A DNA stretch of 64,000 nucleotides, taken from NCBI GenBank assembly GCA_965228735.1, contig OZ245838.1, positions 5,088,001 to 5,152,000 on the forward strand. The letters run 5' to 3'. Position 1 is the first letter of the stretch; each line of letters begins with the position of its first letter. Below the pieces are notes generated by a model that was given only the letters and a program-made list of their open reading frames with translations, ran no database searches and was not told the DNA's origin. The DNA comes from Planctomycetota bacterium. Lineage in GTDB: Bacteria; Planctomycetota; UBA1135; UBA2386. Positions 1,457 to 7,669 of the stretch are shown here, piece after piece. Both the position numbers and the translations under genes were made by a program.

Positions 1457-1475
1457 GGGTGGCGGTACCGAACCC
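1457..1475. repeat. Left half of a REP-like palindrome interrupted by the intron
   Basis: GGGTGGCGG (1457-1465) is the perfect reverse complement of CCGCCACCC (3477-3485) in the 3' exon. Confidence 0.75.
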
Positions 1476-3467
1476 TTGCGCCAGGCGAAGCCTGGACGGG
1501 AGAAATCATGACCTGACAGGAATGAGAACCCCGTATTGGAGTCCCGCGGGTGACGAAACCCGCCCGGCGAAGGCTAGCCACCAGCCGGAAGCGAGTCTTG
1601 CGTGGCGACCGGGTAACCGCCGCTGCGAAGCGTAGACAGCGAGGATGTGGGCGGCGCGACTGAGCCCCGAAAGTACCGACAGCGAGAGAGCCGACGTGGT
1701 GGGTTCATCGGAAGGCAACATGGAAGGGCCGCAACCGGCTTGGCCCGGAAGTCTCTCCGGGGTCCTGAGAACGACCGCACGCATCCATCGGACTCCCCAG
1801 GAACCTGGGATCCCCTCGATTGGTCCGATCGTCAACTCCGGCTGGGGCCCGGAAACCAACTCTCCAGGGCCGCGACGTCGTGTCCGCGTCGGTGCCGTCA
1901 AGGAATCCGGACACACGGCCGGTACCGCCGAGCGAAGGAAACGAAGCGACGCGGGACGCCAACGAGGGAGTCGGAGTGCGTCATAGTACCAAAGAGTCCG
2001 GGGAACCCGCCCCACGGGGACCCGGCGGAGGGAAGGGCGTCACCGGCGACAAGGAACCGCTGGACGGACCGACCACGGAGACGACGGGCTCCGAGCAGGT
2101 CTCCACGAAACTCCGGCGGGTAGCGGAGCTGGCGAGGCAGCGACCAGACCTGGTCCTGACCACACTGGCACACCACATGGACATCGCGCTTCTGCGGGAG
2201 GCGTATCGCCGCACGCAGAAGTCCAAAGCTCCTGGTGTCGACGGCGTCACGGCTCGCGACTACGAGCAGGATCTCGAGGGCAACCTCGCGGACCTGCACG
2301 AACGCGCGAAGTCAGGGCGCTATCGCGCACCACCGGTCCGGCGCGTGCACATCCCGAAAGGGAAGGGTGGCACGCGTCCAATCGGAGTGCCGACGCTGGA
2401 GGACAAGGTCTTGCAGCGGGCGGTGACGCAAGTGATGGAGGCGGTATATGAGCAGGACTTCTTGGACTGCTCGCACGGCTTCCGTCCCGGTCGCTCGCCG
2501 CACACGGCACTGGAATCGCTTTGGAAGCATGCGATGTCGATGGGTGGCGGCTGGCTGTTGGAAGTCGACATCCAAGGTTTCTTCGACAACCTGGAGCCGA
2601 CCCATCTGCGAGCGATCCTCGACCAGCGGGTGCGCGACGGAGTGTTCCGTCGACTGATCGACAAGTGGCTGAAGGCGGGGGTGCAGGAGGACGGTGCGCT
2701 GCATCGCTCTCGCAAAGGCACCCCACAAGGAGGCGTGATTTCGCCGCTGCTGGCGAACATCTATTTGCACGCAGTGCTGGACCGTTGGTTTGTCGAGGAA
2801 GTCAAGCCGAGGCTTGCCGGTCGCGCGGAGTTGGTCCGCTATGCGGACGACTTCGTGATCCTGTTTGCCGTCGAAGCCGATGCACGTGCGATGTCGTCGA
2901 TCCTGGCCCAAAGGCTCGGGCGCTTCGGCCTCACACTGCATCCGGACAAGACCCGGTTAGTCCGCTTCCAACCGCCCGAAGACGGCGCGGCGGGGAGCGG
3001 CACTTTCGACTTCCTGGGCTTCACCCATCACTGGTCACGCTCCCGGCGCGGCCGATGGACCGTGCAGCGGCGCACCACACGACACGTCGTGACCCGTACC
3101 CTGACTGGGCTACGGGATTGGTGCCGTCGCAATCGGCACGACAAGGTCCGCGTCCAGTACTCCACCCTGTGCTCGAAGCTACGGGGGCACTACCTCTACT
3201 TCGGCGTGACCGGCAACTCTGCTGCGTTACGTCGCGTATGGTACGAGGCCCGTCGCATCTGGCATCGGTGGCTGAGCCGGCGCTCGCGGGCGGCCTACAT
3301 GTCGTGGGCCCGCTTCGAGCAACTGCTGCGTGCATACCCGCTTCCTCCGCCCCGGCTGACCCGGTCGGTCTACGCAGCGAGCCCTTGTCGCTGACGAGCC
3401 GGATGCGTTAGCCGCGCACGTCCGGATCTGTGGGAGCCCTGGGGGGAGACCCCCAGGGCCACCCGGC
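1476..3467 (+). mobile_element. Group II intron (IIB-like RNA, endonuclease-less IEP, probably bacterial class E)
   Basis: 5' TTGCG at 1476; EBS1 GGGTTC (1701-1706) complements exon GAACCC (1470-1475); EBS2 GTACCG (1673-1678) complements CGGTAC (1463-1468); domain V GAGCCGGATGCG...CGCACGTCCGGATC from 3396; domain VI hairpin with bulged A 3461; RT ORF inside. Confidence 0.92.
2177..3394 (+). CDS. ltrA: Group II intron reverse transcriptase/maturase (start uncertain; RT-like sequence extends up to about 2072)
   Basis: KAPGVDG, RRVHIPK, RPIGVP, SHGFRPGRS, DIQGFFD, GTPQGGVISPLLANIYL, RYADDF, FDFLGFTH; maturase X domain (LRGHYLYFG); no C-terminal HNH domain. Confidence 0.95.
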   Translation: MDIALLREAYRRTQKSKAPGVDGVTARDYEQDLEGNLADLHERAKSGRYRAPPVRRVHIPKGKGGTRPIGVPTLEDKVLQRAVTQVMEAVYEQDFLDCSHGFRPGRSPHTALESLWKHAMSMGGGWLLEVDIQGFFDNLEPTHLRAILDQRVRDGVFRRLIDKWLKAGVQEDGALHRSRKGTPQGGVISPLLANIYLHAVLDRWFVEEVKPRLAGRAELVRYADDFVILFAVEADARAMSSILAQRLGRFGLTLHPDKTRLVRFQPPEDGAAGSGTFDFLGFTHHWSRSRRGRWTVQRRTTRHVVTRTLTGLRDWCRRNRHDKVRVQYSTLCSKLRGHYLYFGVTGNSAALRRVWYEARRIWHRWLSRRSRAAYMSWARFEQLLRAYPLPPPRLTRSVYAASPCR

Positions 3468-3570
3468 GCTTCGAATCCGCCACCCCTGCACCGCCGTAAG
3501 CAGCCGACGAAAGAACGGGTTAGGGGAGTCCGTGCGCGGCGGATGCGAACCCGTTTCGGTACCGCCAGCC
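3468..3570. repeat. Right half of the interrupted palindrome plus a second, inverted copy (3538-3570)
   Basis: GGCGGATGCGAACCCGTTTCGGTACCGCCAGCC resembles the reverse complement of the rejoined site GGGTGGCGGTACCGAACCCGCTTCGAATCCGCCACCC. Confidence 0.7.
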
Positions 3571-3708: not shown

Positions 3709-4131
3709 ATGACGACGAACGGACCCCGCAATCTCGGCGAGCTGCAGCTGGCCATCCTCCACGCGCTCTGGGACCGCGACGAGGCGGCCGTTGCCGAAGT
3801 GCATGCCGCGCTGAAAGATCGCGGCCTCGCCGTGACGACGATCGCGACCATGCTCCGCAAGATGGAGCAGAAGGGGCTCGTGACGCATCGCGAGAACGGG
3901 CGGCAGTTCCTCTATCGCGCCGAGGTCCAGCCCGACCTCGTGCAGCGCAACATGGTCGGCGATCTCGTGTCGCGCCTGTTCGACGGTGATCCGCTCGAGC
4001 TCGTGAACCACCTGATCAAGGCCGGCGACATCGAGCTCGACGAACTCGAAGAGCTGCGCCAGCGCGTCACCGACGCCGAGCAGGGCGATGAAAGCCTCGA
4101 GCAGGACGGGCGCAAGGAGGGGCGGTCGTGA
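3709..4131 (+). CDS. BlaI/MecI/CopY family transcriptional repressor
   Basis: LGELQLAILHALW...TTIATMLRKMEQKGLV...GRQFLYRA...LVSRLFDG winged-helix pattern. Confidence 0.92.
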   Translation: MTTNGPRNLGELQLAILHALWDRDEAAVAEVHAALKDRGLAVTTIATMLRKMEQKGLVTHRENGRQFLYRAEVQPDLVQRNMVGDLVSRLFDGDPLELVNHLIKAGDIELDELEELRQRVTDAEQGDESLEQDGRKEGRS

Positions 4132-5708
4132 TCGCGTCGTTCGATGACGGCGCGACGACGGTGGCGGCCAACTGGCTGCTGACGTTCGCGATCCACTCGA
4201 CGTGCATACTCGGCCTCGCGCTCGCCCTGAGCCACGCGCTGCGCGATCGCTGGATCGCGCTGCAAGAACGGTTGCTCCGACTCTCGCTCTGGGCGGCAGT
4301 CGCCAGCACGACGCTGCAGCTCACGTGCGCGCCGACTGCGTTGCCGCTGTCGTTGACGAGCAACAACGAGAACGTCGTCGCGGTCGCGCCGGCGGGCACG
4401 GTGCTCGGGATCGGAGCGGATGTCGGATTCGACGGCGACGCGGGCTACGCGGGCCACGCGGACCACGCGGGCGGGCCGATCACGCTGCAACCGCTCGCGC
4501 CGATGCCGCACGACGCGAAGGTTGCCACCGACGCGGGCGGCGCGTTCCGGTTCGCCGAGCTGTCGAACTGGCCGCTGACGACCTGGCTCACGGTGCTCGC
4601 GGCCATCTTCGGCGGCGCGGGCGCGCTCTGGCTGCTGCGCACGCACCATCGGCTGCGCGCGATCCTGCGCCGGCGTGAGCCCGAGACCGACGGCCGCACC
4701 CTCGCGGCGGCGGCGAGTGCGGCCGGCGCGATCGGCCTGCGGCAGTCACCGCACGTCAGTCGCAGCGACGAGATCCTCACGCCGATCGCGTTCGGTCTGC
4801 TGCGGCCGGAGATCTGCCTGCCGCGGCGCGCGAGCGCGCTGCCGGACGACGAACTGCGCGCGATGCTCGCCCACGAGATCGCCCACCTCGAGCGGCGGGA
4901 TCCCGTCTGGATGTGGTTCGCGGCCGGCTTGCAGGCGGCGTTCCCGTGGCAGCTCCTGACCGTGTTCGTGCGGCGGCGCTGGAGCCACCTCGTCGAACTG
5001 CGCTGCGATGCGGTCGCGGCGGCACAAACGAGCCCGACGGTCGTCGCGCGTTGTCTGCTCGACGTCGCCGAATGGCTGCGCCCGGCCAAACCGATCGCGC
5101 CGCTGGCGCTCGGCATGGCGGCGCGACCGTCCGCGCTGCGGCGGCGCGTCGACGCGGCCCTGCGACGCGGCGCCGCGGGTCGACTCGGCCGCGGCTGGTC
5201 GATCGGGCTCTCCGGCCTGTCGCTGTCCGCGCTCACGTTCGTCGCTCCGGGCGTCCAGTCGGCGCCGGCCGCCAACGGCGACGGGGTCGCGGACTTCCGC
5301 TTCTTCGGTGTGCCGGTCGAGAGCGGTGCCGACCGCGACGCTGGCAGCAGCGACGCTGGAGTTCGCGGCACTGGAGATCGCGCGCCGGGCGCCGGTGACG
5401 AAGCCGAAGCGATCGCGGCCGGCGACGCGATGAGCGACTCGTTCCCGGGTCGTGATCCCGAGCCCCGGAACGCGCCGGCCCCCGGCGAGGTCGAGCTGAT
5501 GATCGCGGCAGCGATGAGTCAGCTCGAGACCGAGCACCACATGCTGGAGCACGAGCTCCAGCGTCTGCGCACCCGGGCGGCCGCCGCGCCGCCCGAACGG
5601 CGCCAGCTCGTCGCCCCGCTCATCGCGGAGATCGAGCAGCGCCTCCTGATCGTCGACCGGTCGTGCGAACGCATACGCGAACTCCTCGACCGCCGTGCGG
5701 GCCGGTGA
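4128..5708 (+). CDS. M56 family (BlaR1/MecR1-like) membrane metallopeptidase
   Basis: GTGA overlap with repressor; TM helices; PIAFGLLRPEICLP, LAHEIAHLERRD, ELRCD; C-terminal coiled coil. Confidence 0.9.
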   Translation: MIASFDDGATTVAANWLLTFAIHSTCILGLALALSHALRDRWIALQERLLRLSLWAAVASTTLQLTCAPTALPLSLTSNNENVVAVAPAGTVLGIGADVGFDGDAGYAGHADHAGGPITLQPLAPMPHDAKVATDAGGAFRFAELSNWPLTTWLTVLAAIFGGAGALWLLRTHHRLRAILRRREPETDGRTLAAAASAAGAIGLRQSPHVSRSDEILTPIAFGLLRPEICLPRRASALPDDELRAMLAHEIAHLERRDPVWMWFAAGLQAAFPWQLLTVFVRRRWSHLVELRCDAVAAAQTSPTVVARCLLDVAEWLRPAKPIAPLALGMAARPSALRRRVDAALRRGAAGRLGRGWSIGLSGLSLSALTFVAPGVQSAPAANGDGVADFRFFGVPVESGADRDAGSSDAGVRGTGDRAPGAGDEAEAIAAGDAMSDSFPGRDPEPRNAPAPGEVELMIAAAMSQLETEHHMLEHELQRLRTRAAAAPPERRQLVAPLIAEIEQRLLIVDRSCERIRELLDRRAGR

Positions 5709-5782
5709 CGGCTGTCGCCGCCCGACCCATCCCTCCCGAACAACGAGACCGAACCACCACTCCCTACACCCGAGGTGAACCA

Positions 5783-7669
<1,887 letters not shown>

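Follow-up and report, generated by a model that had tools for sequence, protein, structure and literature searches.

The locus described here raises the question of what a group II intron recognizes when it settles in a palindrome scattered between the genes of its host: the shape of the hairpin, or its letters. It lies in a window of 64,000 nucleotides from a Planctomycetota bacterium (assembly GCA_965228735.1, contig OZ245838.1, positions 5,088,001 to 5,152,000), where the intron occupies positions 1476-3467 (1992 nt) between the two halves of a palindrome that resembles repetitive extragenic palindromic (REP) elements. Coordinates without a prefix are those of the window, and features lie on the forward strand unless stated. 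An initial reading, made from the letters alone (the sequence-only reading), had noted that removal of this interval restores the palindrome and had proposed an endonuclease-less IIB-type intron with a dispersed repeat as its target. Judged from the features of the element and its copies, the intron is real, and it is very probably recently mobile, class E-like and homing to a REP-like doublet.

Intron copies and their landing site

The host genome (7.19 Mb, a single contig, G000:C1) contains ten copies of the intron, 99.95-100% identical, and the points where their identity begins and stops fix both ends of the element and thereby bear out the rejoined palindrome. Eight copies are intact and at most one base apart, and two are broken by multi-copy insertion sequences. 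All ten have the same 5' and 3' half-palindromes as flanks and sit at the identical base of the repeat, with none elsewhere. The intron starts with TTGCG and ends with CCCGGC; its termini (UUGCG...GC) depart from the canonical GUGYG...AY, and the same variant ends occur in many of 32 full-length related loci. The Rfam domain I-IV ribozyme motif RF02005 covers positions 1555-1773 (123.5 bits, cut-off 49). An Rfam scan of the domain V/VI part gave no match; positions 3390-3467 fold into domains V and VI (z=-3.95), domain V (3396-3429) carrying the AGC catalytic triad, a CG bulge and a 5-nt loop, and domain VI (3430-3467) the presumed branch point, A3461 at -7.

The repeat element of the window consists of an origin-proximal arm, split by the intron into a 5' half (the 5' exon, 1457-1475, with a 9-bp stem arm at 1457-1465 and the 32-bp unit beginning at 1460) and a 3' half (the 3' exon, 3468-3485), a spacer (3484-3535, 52 bp) and a second, inverted arm on the reverse strand (3536-3567), which is degenerate, with five mismatches and a non-pairing intron-binding site 1 (IBS1). 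Once rejoined, the 37-mer is predicted to fold (-13.4 kcal/mol, DNA parameters) with stems of 9 bp and 4 bp separated by a 3x3 internal loop and capped by a terminal loop of 5 nt, inside which the insertion point falls, in agreement with the hairpin originally described. Also as described, the stem lies just after a stop codon, starting 11 nt past that of the upstream gene (1443-1445), so that read-through from this gene could transcribe the intron.

Repeat units, defined by at most six mismatches to the rejoined 32-mer after removal of the introns in silico, number 133 in the genome (122 with at most three mismatches) and form 72 loci, made up of 59 inverted pairs, 12 singles and one triple. 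Paired units account for 119 of the 133, and 106 of these 119 have a 51-bp spacer of variable sequence, giving elements of about 115 bp. According to our own codon-usage open reading frame (ORF) caller, 71 of the 72 loci lie outside genes, and 37 loci are situated between convergent genes. The 15-mer singled out in the sequence-only reading occurs 78 times (37+41). The palindrome is thus not unique to this locus, the other intron copies do not lie in unrelated sequence, and the proposal of a dispersed, extragenic, multi-copy target holds. By analogy, this organization is that of REPINs. The tetranucleotides GTAG or GTGG are not found at the foot of the hairpin and the bases ahead of the stem vary, hence the repeat is called REP-like here and not a canonical GTAG REP. 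As a family, it was not found in 40 relatives or in 338 further genomes of the order, the latter giving five single hits, and nine metagenome matches, with 99.9-100% identity to this genome, are not independent evidence. A preference of the intron for paired over single repeats was considered and dropped, since 119 of the 133 units are paired anyway.

A sister repeat family of about 190 units shares a core with the target family. Its units (e.g. G000:C1:760886-760977 and 5800419-5800499) often form long, perfect hairpins with the end of a gene duplicated in inverse orientation on their outer flanks, and some are fused to 5' halves of target-family units.

A single entry of the intron followed by passive spread through duplication of the repeat element is extremely unlikely. 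It would account for one occupied pair with identical spacer and partner arm, but the other eight occupied loci differ in spacers and flanks while their introns differ by at most one base, and occupancy at shared elements differs between runs (see below). The pair in question (G000:C1:1603914-1606020 and 6838625-6840731) comprises the sole two repeat elements with an identical spacer, both intron-bearing and with different outer flanks, which fits gene conversion between intron copies running through the spacer.

The two interrupted intron copies (G000:C1:339710-344444 and 6550593-6553893) contain two elements of one 1.3-kb type and one of a 1.4-kb type, which we take to be IS3-like and IS256-like. 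Loose contig ends from other runs place the 1.3-kb insertion sequence at a further position in the intron.

Recognition of the target by base pairing

Exon-binding site 1 (EBS1, GGGTTC, 1701-1706), preceded by the delta nucleotide U1700, pairs 6/6 with IBS1 (1470-1475, exon positions -6 to -1), and EBS2 (GTACCG, 1673-1678) pairs 6/6 with IBS2 (1463-1468, -13 to -8). Both pairings had been proposed from the letters, and both were confirmed above chance by covariation among related introns. From 82 loci, 32 with both intron ends and, among these, 27 distinct domain I sequences were retained, and for each exon position the intron column most complementary to it beyond chance was sought. Exon positions -1 to -6 select the EBS1 columns 1701-1706 in register (67-96% Watson-Crick), and -9 to -12 select the EBS2 columns 1674-1677 (52-79%); no EBS2 column was singled out in these 27 introns for -8 and -13. 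Position +1 (G3468, IBS3) selects C1765, identified as EBS3 (93% Watson-Crick, 0.64 above expectation). Also, the U 5' of EBS1 is invariant in the relatives whose loop was read. The covariation of EBS1, EBS2 and EBS3 indicates that the pairings are real and that recognition is of the IIB type, as proposed, and not IIC. The initial account mentioned neither EBS3 nor the inverted arm at 3536-3567, nor the strand bias described below. Two occupied arms deviate from the consensus, with a G-T wobble at -1 in one and an unpaired -7 in the other, both tolerated places.

Recognition of hairpin shape in the manner of class C introns, with the EBS2 match incidental, was weighed against pairing. The site is a stable hairpin just past a stop codon, and arms changed at -12/-11 have weaker hairpins (mean -4.5 vs -7.6 kcal/mol), so that occupancy alone cannot separate pairing from shape. 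However, the lineage shows covariation with the exons for both EBS1, of 6 bp, and EBS2, whereas class C introns have a short EBS1 and lack EBS2. In addition, insertion is within the loop and not past the stem, many relatives occupy sites without such a hairpin (read by eye), and the reverse transcriptase (RT) groups with a class E reference, in a tree without a class C reference. Recognition by shape is therefore very improbable.

Most of the 32 full-length related loci have unrelated flanking sequence and retuned EBS motifs. Of three relatives chosen by eye for their repetitive flanks, two have targets with 150 and 14 matches and one has a unique target, and a specialism for REP across the whole clade is not borne out. 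The sequences suggest that use of repeats recurs within the lineage; no general rule is established. The introns with 150 and 14 matches (L073 in genome G341 and L058 in G340) lie within short, tandem, non-palindromic intergenic repeats arranged in inverted clusters. One deltaproteobacterial genome carries at least five near-identical related introns (L057, L088, L094, L105, L110) at similar, apparently coding sites, three of them on one contig. In another genome (G035), a related intron has a RAYT-like gene on one side and a pair of inverted repeats on the other, and follows directly on a terminator-like hairpin (L002:1-720 and 2903-3100).

The intron-encoded protein

The RT/maturase ORF extends over positions 2075-3394, in a frame open from 1820, and matches TIGR04416 at 344.8 bits (cut-off 300). 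A Pfam scan of the ORF gave RVT_1 alone and no endonuclease domain, and the protein stops about 105 residues past the RT domain without an HNH-like tail, in line with the endonuclease-less state first suggested. The start is uncertain and likely a non-AUG codon near 2072-2077. Within 2060-2086, ACC stands where relatives usually have ATG, the next codon is ACG and the ribosome-binding motif is weakened. An ATG near the start occurs in 29 of 38 anchored rows and an ACG at the conserved place in five relatives. Thus, the lineage may include members whose non-AUG starts limit expression of the RT.

In a quick tree without bootstrap, the RT groups with that of the disrupted pRmeGR4b intron (SH-aLRT, the Shimodaira-Hasegawa-like approximate likelihood ratio test, 99; 44.5% identity), which is called class E in PMC5894124 (here and below, the literature is represented by the available parts of the cited articles). 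This reference was recognized indirectly: the 200 of 226 kb of the plasmid examined contain no other group II RT annotated as disrupted. The remaining references, taken from supplementary tables of PMC3552965 (rows of S1, and S2), were three of class D and one g1, one g2 and two g3 of the former class F varieties, with g4, core F and class C outside the set; all of these fall in other clades. The phylogeny suggested in the sequence-only reading as a check on class thus places the RT with the class E reference and apart from class D and g1-g3. The intron RT is likely of class E as judged from its sequence, and two traits of that class, the lack of an endonuclease domain and a 5-nt domain V loop, are present. 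Two other RT genes were noticed in the genome, a single-copy gene akin to unclassified intron RTs (G000:C1:7172428-7173567), beside which a pattern search found no domain V, and one encoding a 636-aa RT unlike an intron protein (G000:C1:4719960-4721870).

Orientation and occupancy of the repeat arms

By cumulative GC skew, replication starts near 4.57 Mb and ends near 1.25 Mb. With respect to these points, the sense strand of the intron lies on the lagging-strand template in nine of ten copies (p=0.02 vs 50:50), hereafter the favoured orientation. The 133 arms are evenly divided between orientations (67 favoured, 66 other). Those able to pair with the intron, wobble allowed, are not, amounting to 26/67 favoured and 58/66 other arms (p=3e-9); against this 26:58 split, the 9/10 orientation has p=0.0002. 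Occupancy follows both pairing and orientation. In the favoured orientation, nine of 26 competent arms and none of 41 non-pairing arms are filled (Fisher p=7e-5), and in the other orientation one of 58 competent arms (p=7e-5) and none of eight non-pairing arms. No non-pairing arm is therefore occupied (0 of 49), and only 26 of the 133 arms are both competent and favoured.

Further occupancy states were obtained from contigs of four other runs. In all four, intron contigs are deeper than flank contigs, least so in run X6, although depth is not copy number. In run X6, one contig diverges from the reference at 1475 with 8 letters of 3' exon, and a second joins it at 3467/3468 after 10 letters of 5' exon. 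These contigs point to an empty allele of the window locus. The search for such an allele, proposed at the outset, is thus answered by contig ends that match an empty site, with overhangs (8 and 10 letters) that fall short of the 31-letter bridging rule. Conversely, in a contig of run X16 the flank of an arm without intron in this genome (G000:2980570) is followed by about 600 nt of intron, and candidate occupied arms were found at 3766862 (X7), at 670005 and 5556088 (X6, two-contig consensus, 29/30 letters) and, in the disfavoured orientation, at 1637743 (X2, two-contig consensus, 30/30 letters). All five of these arms are pairing-competent and four are favoured; they were matched by eye, three come from a two-contig consensus, and the run into the intron is inferred for X7 and X2. 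One more occupied X6 site did not map to this genome.

These patterns, by analogy with RmInt1 and RmInt2, class D introns of Sinorhizobium meliloti, would agree with the following course. The intron would be transcribed by read-through from the upstream gene, spliced, and reverse spliced into the lagging-strand template, with the nascent lagging strand as primer. Homing would likely proceed by ordinary EBS1/EBS2/EBS3 pairing with single-stranded DNA at the replication fork. As the pairing spans the 5' side of both stems, the intron would need to open the hairpin and not to read its shape, and one changed letter at IBS2 position -12 or -11 would be enough to prevent homing. The arrangement in inverted pairs means that one arm of each locus faces the favoured direction.

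Several points weigh against this reading of a class E-like intron homing by pairing at the fork. One copy in this genome is in the disfavoured orientation, and so, probably, is the one in run X2, and the replication direction of all arms is derived from GC skew. At the RT start this copy has ACC instead of the relatives' usual ATG. The class E call comes from a single reference, itself identified indirectly, in a quick tree without bootstrap. Also, the EBS2-IBS2 pairing was not needed for self-splicing in vitro of one class E and one class F intron (PMC3753933), and RmInt2 homes with -11 unpaired (PMC4615759), so that the case for a block by one mismatch is made by the occupancy counts. In favour of the reading, homing of RmInt1 selects for EBS2 pairing (PMC4075523).

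Strand-specific variation at IBS2

The shortage of competent arms in the favoured orientation is located at two positions of IBS2, -12 and -11 (1464 and 1465 in the window). Position -12 is altered in 17/67 favoured and 3/66 other arms (p=0.001) and -11 in 20/67 and 2/66 (p=3e-5), together 37/67 and 5/66. Among the 32 columns of the repeat, these two alone are orientation-biased at p<0.05. Each of the two replichores has the bias, as do the loci between convergent genes (23/37 vs 6/34), and it persists when the repeat search is anchored 3' of these positions. Transcription was ruled out as its cause, given its persistence between convergent genes and a share of only 54% of called genes encoded on the leading strand. 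Arm-to-arm conversion was also rejected, as it would remove or spread changes on both arms alike, and the other polymorphic columns are unbiased. A restriction or methylation site at GGTACC was ruled out by reasoning, as this sequence is palindromic and would give no strand bias. The cause may lie with the intron or with insertion of the repeat, each of them a tentative reading, and is unlikely to be another strand-specific process. Empty orthologous sites of two loci in two genomes of the same genus have gene ends of about 80% identity and are too diverged to be read.

It is conceivable, at somewhat less than an even chance, that the intron itself drives the asymmetry, either invading and purging perfect favoured arms or, by its attack, favouring non-pairing ones, so that immune arms accumulate on that strand. 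The repeat family would then record, in what can only tentatively be called an arms race, the escape of a target from an RNA-guided invader, with over half of the arms on the vulnerable strand made immune by one letter. Both biased columns lie in IBS2, none of the others is biased, and the direction of the bias equals that of the intron, in both replichores and between convergent genes alike. Of the 59 pairs, 27 are changed in the favoured arm alone, none in the other arm alone and four in both, and arms changed at both -12 and -11 are lacking (0/67 vs 5.1 expected, p=0.0008). The sister family of the same genome, which is not a target, has no orientation bias at these positions (3/87 vs 6/104, p=0.51). 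Neither has a related repeat in another genome (G069; 45 units, 400 kb; -12 altered in 1/24 vs 5/21, -11 in 0/24 vs 0/21), in which the RT of this intron was looked for and not found; this control is weakened by windows picked around matches that require G at -11 and by orientation taken from local skew. Against a role of the intron, the changes are confined to two of about 12 IBS positions, and -1, freely variable in the sister repeats, has one non-pairing change in 67. Also, the substitutions at -12/-11 (C19:T9:A9) are unlike those of the other repeat positions, which are rich in transitions (p=0.0007), and older elements hold no excess of changed arms (12/20 young vs 19/39 old).

The latter observations agree better with a second explanation, likewise held with some reserve, in which the lagging-strand template is where a RAYT inserts the paired repeat, and the target supplies the six outermost bases of the origin-proximal arm, -12 and -11 being random host bases. 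As a possible corollary, no more firmly held, the intron would merely use the arms that happen to match. The spectrum at the two positions agrees with the supply of such hexamers in the genome (chi-square p=0.32 and 0.22) independently of age, and the variation goes no further than the -11|-10 boundary, six bases inward from the edge of the unit. When Pseudomonas REPINs are excised, about 6 bp of one end stay in place (PMC3116915), and Y1 transposases of the IS608 type target the lagging-strand template (PMC6006769), both of which count for such a footprint. A RAYT-like gene is present, and its homologues are flanked by related repeats in the three repeat-rich relatives tested. On the other hand, positions -16 to -13 show the same degree of conservation in the two arms, so that insertion would need a strict target tetramer two bases from the junction. 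In addition, double mismatches are common in the genome and absent from the arms, and the sister repeat flanking the RAYT-like gene lacks a robust orientation bias (lowest p=0.0024 among 45 columns).

The RAYT-like gene is a single Y1 transposase gene (G000:C1:6715991-6717016; L118:592-1620) with 26.8 bits to Y1_Tnp (cut-off 23) and 49 bits to NF047646, below the RAYT cut-off of 80. A whole-genome search with the Pfam Y1_Tnp model missed it, and it was found with the protein of a relative as query. On its flanks lie four units of the sister family and half a unit of the target family. Homologues occur in four of five relatives tested, including all three that are rich in related repeats, and at four of seven homologue loci a related repeat lies beside the gene. 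One of these repeats (L211) has A at -11, so that this base is not fixed across families. The encoded protein has a C-terminal helix-turn-helix resembling sigma70-r4.

Finally, a strand-specific mutation hot spot at the two G beside the internal loop could act independently of intron and transposase. The lagging-strand template lies exposed in single-stranded form, and GG steps oxidize readily. This explanation is unlikely, as independent changes predict about five doubles where none is observed, the other GG of the stem (-15/-14) is altered in only 2/67 arms, and the changes do not rise with the age of the element.

Relation to known elements

The closest precedent is RmInt2, since it uses both inverted repeats of ISRm17, which keep one target always on the favoured strand (PMC4615759, PMC5894124). 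RmInt1 and RmInt2 (class D, IIB3) resemble the present intron in EBS1/EBS2/EBS3 recognition, lack of an endonuclease and a multi-copy, non-essential target, and a bias to the lagging-strand template is published for both (same articles). Unlike them, the present intron has an RT only 31-39% identical to three class D proteins and in a separate clade, and its target is a 32-bp extragenic palindrome within paired elements of about 115 bp, not an insertion sequence. Strand-biased variation of the target is not reported for them in the available parts of PMC4615759 and PMC5894124.

Class E introns such as S.me.I4 and Cl.be.I2 share the RT grouping, the lack of an endonuclease and the 5-nt domain V loop, which is described for IIE/IIF (PMC3753933). 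The present RT belongs to a sister sub-clade with proteins of Bradyrhizobium, Planctomycetota, Myxococcota and Acidobacteriota. EBS2 is dispensable for splicing of Cl.be.I2 in vitro (PMC3753933), whereas IBS2 tracks occupancy here. The occupancy counts point to a role of EBS2 in DNA homing, dispensable as it is for class E self-splicing in vitro. IIC and IIC-attC introns also occupy the neighbourhood of intergenic hairpins after a gene. Those of class IIC have an EBS1 of 3-4 bp, no EBS2 and insert after the stem-loop or into it (PMC7923331), in contrast to the full EBS1 and EBS2 and the insertion in the terminal loop seen here.

Precise, repeated insertion in REP palindromes is known for IS1397, IS621, ISPpu10 and ISPa11 (PMC1525189), which, unlike the intron, move by DNA transposases. 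In Pseudomonas putida, two of nine copies of a group II intron are REP-associated (PMC1525189), compared with ten of ten here. The repeat itself resembles the REPINs of Pseudomonas fluorescens SBW25 in its inverted doublets, spacers of fixed length and variable sequence, extragenic location and single-copy Y1 transposase flanked by repeats (PMC3116915). It differs in lacking the GTAG/GTGG foot, the core shared with the sister repeats beginning with GTAC, and its transposase does not reach the NCBIfam cut-off for RAYTs and has mostly sister-family units on its flanks. A literature search that covered few subscription journals found no study of REP homing by an EBS2-using group II intron and no paper on strand-biased target variation, nor is either subject treated in the available parts of PMC12584367 and 10.64898/2026.09.22.753630.

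With this intron, REP-like doublets join the landing sites of EBS2-using group II introns, and the 133 targets in two orientations constitute a natural experiment. If the intron drives the asymmetry, this would be evidence that extragenic insertions carry a cost and that targets evade the intron; if it is the work of the transposase, it would supply a definite rule of strand and target for how REPINs move. Should escape prove wrong, the pattern would likely be the footprint of RAYT insertion of REPINs, with the lagging-strand template as its strand and a target-derived hexamer.

Neighbouring genes

The gene upstream of the intron (387-1445) encodes a secreted-type protein for which a Pfam search gave no family. 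Directly downstream of the repeat element, positions 3709-5708 encode a pair formed by a BlaI-like repressor and a BlaR1/M56 peptidase, followed by a long ORF (5663-7669) with repeated poly-Asp and His-rich tracts.

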